Shown here in pieces: positions 36,768 through 38,773 of a stretch of DNA of 38,773 nt; positions within the stretch are counted from its first letter, which is position 1; each line of letters starts with the position of its first letter. The notes under the pieces are model-generated. The model saw nothing but the letters and a program-made list of their open reading frames with translations, ran no database searches and had not been told where the DNA came from. The stretch is from IMG/VR virus record IMGVR_UViG_2671180896_000005, positions 1 through 38,773 of that record. One strand, written 5' to 3'. This DNA comes from a virus. Lineage: Duplodnaviria > Heunggongvirae > Uroviricota > Caudoviricetes. The position numbers were made by a program, and so were the translations under genes.

Positions 36768-37364
36768 ATGCATCGTATAGACACGAAAACCGCGCAGAAG
36801 GATAAGTTCGGCGCGGGTAAGAACGGTTTTACCCGTGGTAACCCCCAGACCGGCACGCCTGCCACCGATCTGGATGATGACTACTTTGACATGTTGCAGG
36901 AGGAGCTTTGCAGCGTTGTGGAGGCGTCCGGTGCCAGCCTGGATAAGGGGCGGCACGACCAGCTACTTACCGCGCTTCGCGCGCTGCTGTTAAGCCGCAA
37001 GAATCCGTTTGGCGATATCAAATCGGATGGCACGGTGAAAACAGCTCTCGAAAACCTTGGTTTGGGAGAAGGCTCTGCATTACCTGTTGGTGTGCCTGTT
37101 CCGTGGCCTTCCGCCACTCCGCCGACAGGCTGGCTGAAATGCAATGGTGCGGCTTTTTCTGCTGAAGAATACCCGGAACTGGCAAAGGCTTACCCGACAA
37201 ATAAATTGCCTGATTTACGCGGTGAGTTTATTCGTGGCTGGGATGACGGACGTGGAGTGGATAACGGAAGGGGATTATTAACGCTTCAGGACGGTGCGAT
37301 TGTCAGTCATAACCACTATTGGGGAATCTGGACTTCACGAACTAACGACCAGACTTGCGAATGA
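36768..37364 (+). CDS. tail fibre protein (constant N-terminal part + variable C-terminal part in current orientation)
   Basis: 198-aa ORF; conserved fibre N-terminus ([26 protein letters not shown]...); C-terminal motif [11 protein letters not shown]...YPELAKAYP...[22 protein letters not shown]; contains an invertase crossover-like site at codons 93-101. Confidence 0.8.
37045..37070. repeat. DNA-invertase crossover site (gix/hix/pix-like), left boundary of the invertible segment
   Basis: CTCTCGAAAACC-TT-GGTTTGGGAGAA: 26-bp imperfect palindrome with AAACC/GGTTT around a central TT; as I recall, close to hixL (TTCTTGAAAACC-AA-GGTTTTTGATAA). Confidence 0.7.
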
Positions 37365-37412
37365 AACACGCCCACGAAATGTCGCTTTTAACTATATTGT
37401 GAGGGCTGCATA

Positions 37413-38015
37413 ATGAATAACGCAGAATTAAACAGTGAATTAATTGCCACTATGGCAGGAGAAATTACTGTTTATAACTTTGATGTCATGAGTCGGGAAT
37501 ATATTTCAGCTTCAACTGAATATCTTGCTATTGGTGTCGGCATTCCGGCATATTCCTGTTTAGATGCCCCAGGCGCATACAAAGCTGGTTATGCAATCTG
37601 CCGATCTGCAGATTTTAACTCATGGGAATATGTGCCAGACCATCGCGGTGAAATCGTCTTTAGCACCGAAACAGGAGAATCAAAAGAAATCACAGTTCCG
37701 GGTGATTACCCTGATAATACAACCACTATCGCCCCGTTAACGCCATACGATAAATGGGATGGTGAGAAATGGGTGGCGGATACCGAAGCACAGCATAGCG
37801 CCGCAGTAGATGCAGCAGAAGCACAGCGCCAGTCACTGATTGATGCTGCAATGGCTTCCATTAGTCTGATTCAGCTGAAATTACAGGCCGGACGGAAGTT
37901 GACGCAGGCAGAAACCACCCGACTTAACGCCGTGTTGGATTACATTGACGCGGTGACGGCAACAGATACCAGCACAGCGCCGGATGTCATCTGGCCTGAA
38001 CTGCCGGAGGCGTAG
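37413..38015 (+). CDS. tail fibre assembly protein (Tfa)
   Basis: 200-aa ORF after the fibre gene with GAGGG RBS; conserved Tfa C-terminus (...LNAVLDYIDAVTATDTSTAPDVIWPELPEA). Confidence 0.8.
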   Translation: MNNAELNSELIATMAGEITVYNFDVMSREYISASTEYLAIGVGIPAYSCLDAPGAYKAGYAICRSADFNSWEYVPDHRGEIVFSTETGESKEITVPGDYPDNTTTIAPLTPYDKWDGEKWVADTEAQHSAAVDAAEAQRQSLIDAAMASISLIQLKLQAGRKLTQAETTRLNAVLDYIDAVTATDTSTAPDVIWPELPEA

Positions 38016-38424
38016 GCCATTCAATATCTGGCGCACCGGAAGTATCGATCAGCTCCAGTGCGTCCAGATAATCCAGCCACAAATTATATTGCGCCAGTTC
38101 CTCACCTTTCAGACGACCAATAGCGGCTTTACCGGGCCATTGTTTACTGTTCATGTATTCGTTGGCCTGATTAAGCAATAATTGCCTTTCTGATTCTGCC
38201 TGTTGAATAAGTTCTTCATATGATGGTGGAGGTATTAGTGCCCATGTGGGTAATCCATTTTTTCCTGCAACACGAATTTTGTCATCTGGGGGCGTATTGA
38301 TTGCAAATTCATTATAAACATCATCACTGACAGCCAGAGCATCATCTGGCCATGAATTTGCATTAATGTAATCATCCTTAAGCGCAGGATTCACAAAAAT
38401 GTTTAAAGATGGACTATAAAACAT
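37987..38424 (-). CDS. alternative tail fibre assembly protein (Tfa')
   Basis: 145-aa ORF convergent on Tfa, overlapping its 3' end; shares the Tfa C-terminal motif (...YNLWLDYLDALELIDTSGAPDIEWPTPP). Confidence 0.8.
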   Translation of the reverse strand: MFYSPSLNIFVNPALKDDYINANSWPDDALAVSDDVYNEFAINTPPDDKIRVAGKNGLPTWALIPPPSYEELIQQAESERQLLLNQANEYMNSKQWPGKAAIGRLKGEELAQYNLWLDYLDALELIDTSGAPDIEWPTPPAVQAR

Positions 38425-38425
38425 A

Positions 38426-38773
38426 TTAAACCCCTATAGCGATATAACGACCTAATACAGCATTTGCAGCAGTCGCTATGCTTGAAAAACCGCGGAACTG
38501 ATTTGATGTAATTGCAGAAGCCGACAGGATTCCTGCGCCTGAAGGTGTATGCCCCACATGACTAACTATCATCCCATAACATGCTGACGGAAAGGCAAAA
38601 GGAAAATCATTAAGATATCCTGCATCTTCACCACCAGACCCACCAAATCTCGCCTGCCCCCACTGAATAATCAGTGTTCTCCGGGAACCTGAAATAATTA
38701 ACGGAATCGTTACATACCCATTCAGGCCAATGACACCCGATGCAGTGCCAGCCAGAGATAATTCTCCCAAACC
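38426..38773 (-). CDS. alternative tail-fibre C-terminal segment (partial; 5' end beyond window)
   Basis: Open to the window edge on the minus strand; begins in the crossover repeat (GLGE...); stop 1 nt before the Tfa' start. Confidence 0.75.
   Translation of the reverse strand, partial: GLGELSLAGTASGVIGLNGYVTIPLIISGSRRTLIIQWGQARFGGSGGEDAGYLNDFPFAFPSACYGMIVSHVGHTPSGAGILSASAITSNQFRGFSSIATAANAVLGRYIAIGV
38762..38773. repeat. right crossover half-site (truncated by window end)
   Basis: TTCTCCCAAACC is the exact reverse complement of 37059-37070 (GGTTTGGGAGAA); the window ends at the expected central dinucleotide. Confidence 0.65.

Follow-up and report, generated by a model that had tools for sequence, protein, structure and literature searches.

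Closest described systems and the locus analysed

The closest described relative of the locus reported here is the P segment of the e14 prophage of Escherichia coli K-12. This 1797-bp segment inverts under PinE and PinQ at the sequence TTGGTTTGGGAGAAGG (PMC12529663); its phase variation was seen by sequencing and polymerase chain reaction (PCR) (PMC4272514), and inversion at this repeat was demonstrated by PCR, quantitative PCR and sequencing (PMC4272514, PMC12529663). The locus lies at the right end of the Caudoviricetes record IMGVR_UViG_2671180896_000005, the whole 38,773-nt stretch of which is called the window, and comprises a tail-fibre gene followed by two fibre cassettes. A first-pass annotation of the sequence had noted a crossover-like palindrome in the fibre gene, with an inverted copy of its inner half at the window edge, and had interpreted the pair as a host-range switch of the Mu G-segment and e14 P-segment type. 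The observation was confirmed as a whole and the interpretation is supported. We put at roughly 0.88 the probability that the window ends inside an e14-type P segment of about 1.7 kb that is flanked by a pair of inverted 26-bp sites and lies in the tail-fibre gene of a full-length SfV/e14-family prophage. The site identical to that of e14, the convergent cassettes, the in-frame fusion on inversion and the occurrence of both orientations among genomes all bear out the architecture first proposed. The switch is thus of the textbook phage host-range type; what is not routine is a frameshifted allele in the expressed position and a source contig that ends at the crossover point.

The G segment of Mu (invertase Gin) and the C segment of P1 (invertase Cin) are built in a similar way, with 26-bp sites, the constant fibre part outside and the variable parts with their chaperones inside, and the window shares Mu-like baseplate genes. 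The invertases belong to the same serine family, as the PinE of relatives matched Gin (for E. coli strain F467, a match to the Mu Gin structure 3uj3 with E 1e-95). The Mu invertible segment is of about 3 kb and encodes much longer fibres. Unlike Mu, the window has a fibre of 212-260 aa and a segment of about 1.7 kb, and its phage is lambdoid with an HK97-type head and does not transpose.

The crossover sites and their match to those of e14

The left crossover site (37045-37070, no strand assigned) is the 26-bp sequence CTCTCGAAAACCTTGGTTTGGGAGAA, with the halves CTCTCGAAAACC-TT-GGTTTGGGAGAA and the central dinucleotide TT at 37057-37058. It is an imperfect palindrome, symmetric at 9/12 positions, and a direct reading of the sequence upheld its first description as a Gin/Hin/Pin-like site: it is identical at 26/26 positions to the left P-segment site of e14, and the core TTGGTTTGGGAGAAGG within it is the inverted repeat reported for the e14 inversion (PMC12529663). 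The inner half of the right site (38762-38773, likewise without strand) is TTCTCCCAAACC; these final 12 nt of the window are, as first noted, an exact reverse complement of 37059-37070. The repeat is longer on the source contig, where two more nucleotides on the ...CCAA side form the central AA and pair with the left TT, which makes 14 nt of exact repeat before the contig ends; all 14 visible nucleotides of the right site are perfect. The right site of e14 opens with TTCTCCCAAACCAACGTTTATGAAAA, and these 14 nt are the same as the last 14 nt of the source contig.

Taken alone, a 12-nt inverted repeat is weak evidence. Two other exact 11-nt inverted repeats (I20, I25) lie within the same 2.8 kb, and a rough estimate of our own gave about 0.2 exact 12-mers by chance. 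The 12-mer of 37059-37070, however, was expected only 0.16 times in the window at no more than one mismatch and was seen twice. Since exact inverted repeats of 11-12 nt do arise by chance in this region, the match at the window edge could in principle be a coincidence and the convergent cassettes mere neighbours. The context raises the repeat above chance, because the 26-mer (0.00 expected in the window at no more than three mismatches) is identical to the proven crossover site of e14 and because each copy encodes G-L-G-E in phase with the open reading frame (ORF) to which it belongs. A coincidence was accordingly refuted by the identity with the e14 site together with the inversion seen in strain FDAARGOS_1373, whose alignment flips exactly at the repeat; the homology to other phages also ends at 37071, and the residual probability of a chance repeat is negligible. 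A shufflon with several segments was ruled out as well, as no further crossover site was present in the window at no more than three mismatches.

The similarity to e14 extends well beyond the site. The jayE-ymfQ-stfP region of K-12 MG1655 is 96.3% identical to the window at the nucleotide level over 1671 bp, up to 37072, and residues 1-101 of the fibre, with the G-L-G-E of the site included, are 98% identical to residues 1-101 of K-12 StfP. The order of genes is the same, with two convergent cassettes, and the K-12 tfaP and tfaE genes share the same 29-bp tail-to-tail overlap as their counterparts in the window. The plus-strand cassette of the window is of the stfE/tfaE type (89-95% nucleotide identity, 89% in the tfaE region; 87.5% aa identity of the chaperone). 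With a site identical at 26/26 positions, 96.3% over 1671 bp and 89% across the tfaE region, the locus is an orthologue of the e14 P segment, a system that is already known and is common in E. coli.

There are also clear differences from e14. The minus-strand cassette of the window has diverged, with 29.9% aa identity to the StfP C-terminus and 37.7% to TfaP, and the segment of the window is turned the other way round from that of the K-12 reference. An exact repeat of 14 nt here compares with one of 16 nt in e14, the Collar allele of the window carries a 137-bp deletion, and pinE lies off the source contig. Finally, the window represents a full-length prophage at thrW, whereas e14 is a 15-kb remnant at icd.

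Gene layout of the segment

The whole plus-strand fibre ORF (36768-37364, +) encodes 198 aa with a Pfam Collar domain. Its first 97 residues (36768-37058, +) are the constant N-terminal part, which lies outside the invertible segment and is transcribed together with the Mu-like baseplate genes upstream. The variable C-terminus now joined to it (37059-37364, +) is of the e14 StfE type (Collar, E 1e-15). It is followed by an out-of-frame remnant of the former 3' end of the fibre gene (37365-37414, +), recognised by alignment and translation and stranded by the deletion, and by the gene of the 200-aa tail-fibre assembly chaperone Tfa (37413-38015, +; Caudo_TAP, E 4e-32; 87.5% aa identity to K-12 TfaE). 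The opposite strand carries the 145-aa chaperone of the alternative cassette, Tfa' (37987-38424, -; Caudo_TAP, E 3.8e-32; 37.7% aa identity to K-12 TfaP), and the alternative fibre C-terminus (38426-38761, -; Gp53-like_C, E 4e-12), which is open to the window edge and silent in the present orientation. The two chaperone genes converge tail-to-tail with an overlap of 29 bp.

The ORF map and the Pfam domains thus agree with the two convergent cassettes first described, a constant N-terminus outside the segment and two C-termini inside it, each with its own Tfa, on opposite strands. Both copies of the repeat encode G-L-G-E in the frame of their own ORFs. The in-frame fusion predicted from this was reproduced in silico, as flipping 37059-38773 gave an uninterrupted in-frame fibre of 212 aa. 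The plus-strand allele keeps the frame across the junction and loses it further on through the deletion. An internal promoter driving the silent cassette was considered and rejected: three promoter-like sites were found inside the segment against 3.6 expected from shuffles, and so there was no excess.

By analogy with the described systems, a Pin/Gin-family serine invertase would cut both sites at the central 2 bp and flip the segment of about 1.7 kb. With the constant N-terminus and the promoter outside the segment, only the cassette facing the constant part would be expressed, and the two orientations would give two fibres with different receptor-binding tips, either Collar with a TfaE-like chaperone or Gp53-like_C with Tfa'. 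A consequence for host range would be expected from such an exchange.

Both orientations occur among genomes

The first-pass annotation had suggested looking for assemblies in both orientations, and these were found. At least 80% of 36000-38773 is held in the arrangement of the window by 12 complete E. coli genomes. When the predicted inversion product, in which the constant part runs into the reverse-complemented segment, served as a query of 1291 nt, 24 genomes covered at least 80% of this inverted junction, and 16 of the 24 did so over the full 1291 nt in one alignment, with an identity of 96.7-98.2%.

Strain FDAARGOS_1373 was found in the flipped state. Its flanks aligned to the window in the forward direction (97.0%) and its segment in the reverse direction (99.0% over 1418 nt and 98.4% over 311 nt), the forward and reverse alignments overlapped only over 37052-37070, and pinE was present on the right. 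The fused gene is annotated there as a 639-bp coding sequence. Such an alignment pattern is what site-specific inversion at these sites leaves behind. Both orientations were seen between genomes and not within the source strain.

The invertase and the right site in relatives

Five related E. coli loci with both sites (L001, L002, L003, L006 and L008) were inspected, and the strains examined were F467 (L001), A29, strain 1500, PapM-32-1 and FDAARGOS_1373 (L006). The left site was identical at 26/26 positions in L001, L002, L003 and L008, and differed by one base in L006. A gene for a serine invertase of 184-186 aa, annotated as pinE or recombinase, was present beside the right site in 5/5 loci. 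In F467 and A29, the right site was complete as TTCTCCCAAACC-AA-CGTTTATGAAAA and a pinE gene of 184 aa started 69 nt past the position of the window end; in L001, the remainder of the right site, AACGTTTATGAAAA, directly followed that position. The invertase gene also adjoined the right site in strain 1500, PapM-32-1 and FDAARGOS_1373. The two enzymes scanned, those of F467 and FDAARGOS_1373, have Resolvase and HTH_7 domains and are 95.7% identical to K-12 PinE. In switches of the Din family (Gin/Cin/Pin/Hin), a Fis-dependent recombinational enhancer acts in cis from within the 5' portion of the invertase gene; here it would fall outside the window.

The expectation that the right repeat is completed immediately past the window and is accompanied there by an invertase gene therefore held in all five inspected relatives with two sites; in the source strain, the sequence reaches only 2 nt past the window, where the contig ends. 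The invertase of the source strain would, as in all two-site relatives, be encoded immediately to the right of the right site, and one acting in trans could also serve, as is documented for Pin-type enzymes at these sites (PMC12529663, PMC4134206).

The genes just downstream of pinE vary among the relatives. The regions concerned (L001 7732-9536, L002 7598-10914, L003 5903-6828 and L007 7347-8180) contain an AAA ATPase with a hypothetical protein, a GIY-YIG protein with a cytosine methyltransferase and a type II restriction enzyme, DinI, and McrA, and the right end next to pinE looks like a hot spot for variable cargo or defence genes.

The end of the source contig

An exact look-up of the 198-aa fibre identified the source contig as CXYL01000027.1 of the assembly GCA_001268325.1 (locus L005). 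This contig stops 2 nt past the window, at L005 position 8008, ending in ...TTCTCCCAAACCAA. The break thus falls on the central dinucleotide AA of the right site, the last base that would be common to both orientations. The predicted continuation of ...TTCTCCCAAACCAA is CGTTTATGAAAA in the present orientation and GGTTTTCGAGAG in the inverted one, and the contig end fits a branch of the assembly graph at the crossover site. The switch can thereby account for the point at which the draft contig breaks off. The contig end was rejected as proof of a culture of mixed orientation: the left junction was assembled through, and the break could just as well come from low coverage or from a further copy of this end of the cassette at another place in the genome. 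Breaks of draft assemblies at the crossover dinucleotide, as at window position 38773 and L005 8008, may be a cheap marker for such switches.

Several points weigh against the reading of the locus as a working P segment. Neither the window nor the source contig, which ends there, contains the invertase gene or the outer half-site on the right. The assembly is also continuous across the left junction, and this speaks against a sequenced culture in which the two orientations were strongly mixed. The left site is not diagnostic by itself, since phage SfV keeps it unchanged and has no invertase. In addition, the literature found gives no measured host-range effect of fibres of 212-260 aa for this prophage family. 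Because the contig ends before the invertase and the outer half-site, activity in the source strain is unproven.

The architecture might then be an inherited one, with the segment locked in this strain by the loss of the right outer half-site or of the invertase, for example through a deletion or insertion past the contig end. Nothing is visible beyond the site at which the contig stops, the locus already shows decay in the form of the 137-bp deletion, and relatives with one site exist (SfV and vB_EcoM-689R6). A locked segment is nevertheless unlikely, given that 5/5 relatives with both cassettes have an intact right site and an invertase gene, that the 14 visible nucleotides of the right site are perfect, and that invertases of the Pin type work in trans (PMC12529663, PMC4134206). 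Ongoing switching in the source strain is inferred, as is the presence of the invertase there.

A frameshifted fibre allele in the present orientation

The expressed Collar allele of the source strain is damaged. A deletion of 137 bp after 37355 (junction 37355/37356) shifts the frame and leads to a stop at 37362-37364, a detail of this locus that was absent from the first-pass annotation. When 37230-37420 was used as a query (191 bp), 162 E. coli records matched at an identity of at least 99%, and in all the matches listed the whole query was covered by two pieces whose combined span in the record was 328 nt, compared with 191 nt here. When aligned to strain 1500, the gene showed a single clean gap of 137 nt, and the fibre is of 260 aa there against 198 aa here. 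The shorter product ends in ...TNDQTCE and the 260-aa version in a C-terminus of its own (17 residues, not shown). Since the truncated protein is on record on just one contig, CXYL01000027.1, where the exact 198-aa product was found, the deletion is probably recent. Inspection of the strain 1500 alignment by eye showed a microhomology of at most 1 nt at the deletion ends, which suggests no particular mechanism. The remaining structural genes have the same length as in relatives.

The present orientation thus encodes a truncated and probably defective fibre, and inversion would supply an intact one. The annotated 198-aa 'tail fibre' is a frameshifted allele, and a flip of the segment would bypass it by joining the constant part to the Gp53-like_C cassette.

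A different role for the switch must be considered at this point, namely that the orientation matters to the bacterium. In K-12 e14, an adsorption role has been reported (PMC12529663), in which an ORF on the invertase side is made and blocks the adsorption of T2-like phages. The window corresponds to the 'inverted' state of K-12, in which the constant part carries the Collar cassette and pin adjoins the gp53-like one, and relatives annotate an ORF of 128 aa that starts between the right site and pinE. That such an ORF serves the host here is improbable: the Gp53-like_C cassette is only 29.9% identical to the K-12 StfP C-terminus, the start of the invertase-side ORF lies outside the window, and the prophage otherwise appears structurally complete, so that the classical role in phage host range suffices. 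In this reading, the ORF would be composed of a short N-terminus from the right flank and the Gp53-like_C cassette, as a counterpart of StfE2. A still more doubtful extension combines a phage-side fibre killed by the 137-bp deletion with a StfE2-like invertase-side ORF, which would make the locus a domesticated, recombinase-controlled block of phage adsorption as reported for K-12 e14 and PinQ; were this true, the different cassette would possibly imply a target phage other than that of e14. The host-range switch of an e14-type P segment is the reading retained here.

Related fibre loci and sharing of cassettes

The serotype-converting Shigella phages SfV, SfI, SfII and SfIV belong to the same prophage family as the window and use the same type of integration site, thrW/proA. 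Their baseplate genes and constant fibre part are about 96% identical to those of the window, with the similarity ending at 37071, so that the crossover site is also a mosaic boundary. The identical 26-bp sequence was found in orf21 of SfV, the one phage of this group that was checked (L010 5046-5071). Unlike the window, SfV has one fixed cassette followed by a terminator and the gtr O-antigen genes, with no second site and no invertase. Because SfV keeps the site under these conditions, a lone site in the conserved ALENLGLGE coding motif does not speak for a switch; it is the second, inverted copy that does.

The same mechanism, with 26-bp sites, is present in the prophages Phi1, Phi2 and Phi4 of the ST131 strain EC958. 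PacBio reads of the invertible fibre regions in the EC958 prophages contained both alleles, and Phi2 has inner half-sites, GGTTTAGGAGAA and GGTTTGGGGGAA, that are each one base off the inner half-site of the window (PMC4134206). The ST131 prophages differ in having longer fibres, with Phage_fibre_2 repeats in the constant part, and segments of 2.1-3.1 kb.

In the e14-like phage vB_EcoM-689R6 (L011, 3769-6050), the left site was found with a fibre gene of 516 bp and no invertible cassettes. The genes mcrA and a DNA invertase follow, on the strand opposite to the e14 arrangement, and this layout suggests a past rearrangement involving the crossover site.

An intact version of the Collar cassette of the window was found in p13TMH22-1 (L004 2694-4814), a P2-like replicon of 36 kb that is recorded as a plasmid, with an identity of 99.7% over 304 nt. 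There the cassette is in the silent position and adjoins the element's own recombinase. It shows that cassettes are shared between phages with Mu-like tails and P2-like phages, which fits the exchange of cassettes between unrelated phages (Sandmeier 1994, in the form in which it is cited in PMC4134206).

The host prophage and its cargo

The window starts with the chromosomal gene proA, followed by tRNA-Thr(CGU) at 1369-1444 and a tyrosine integrase. These features rule out that the window is a circular phage genome whose invertase gene lies at its far end. In a relative with 97% identity across the first 25 kb, they are followed by a lambdoid early region, a head of the HK97 type and a contractile, Mu-like tail; the baseplate genes that precede the fibre gene are likewise Mu-like (gp44-48). 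The host element is a full-length prophage of the SfV/e14 family at the tRNA-Thr gene thrW next to proA. The tail module of this family is common in E. coli, with 861 of 5426 complete genomes containing it.

Two further regions of the prophage carry genes that are unrelated to the fibre. In the immunity region, a Ser/Thr protein kinase of eukaryotic type (Pkinase, E 3e-32) is encoded beside a PP2C phosphatase (E 5e-12) at 6625-8090 (-), adjoining a CI-like repressor at 8186-8941 (-), and the pair may serve as an accessory or exclusion module. Cargo was also found at 12024-14633, a stretch flanked by the replication genes and the nin/Q region, and consists of an outer-membrane beta-barrel protein (12024-12773, -), an SMR-family transporter (13145-13531, +) and an alpha/beta hydrolase of the BD-FAE type (13590-14633, -). 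At the same position, the closest relative has an AAA ATPase and an RloB protein instead.

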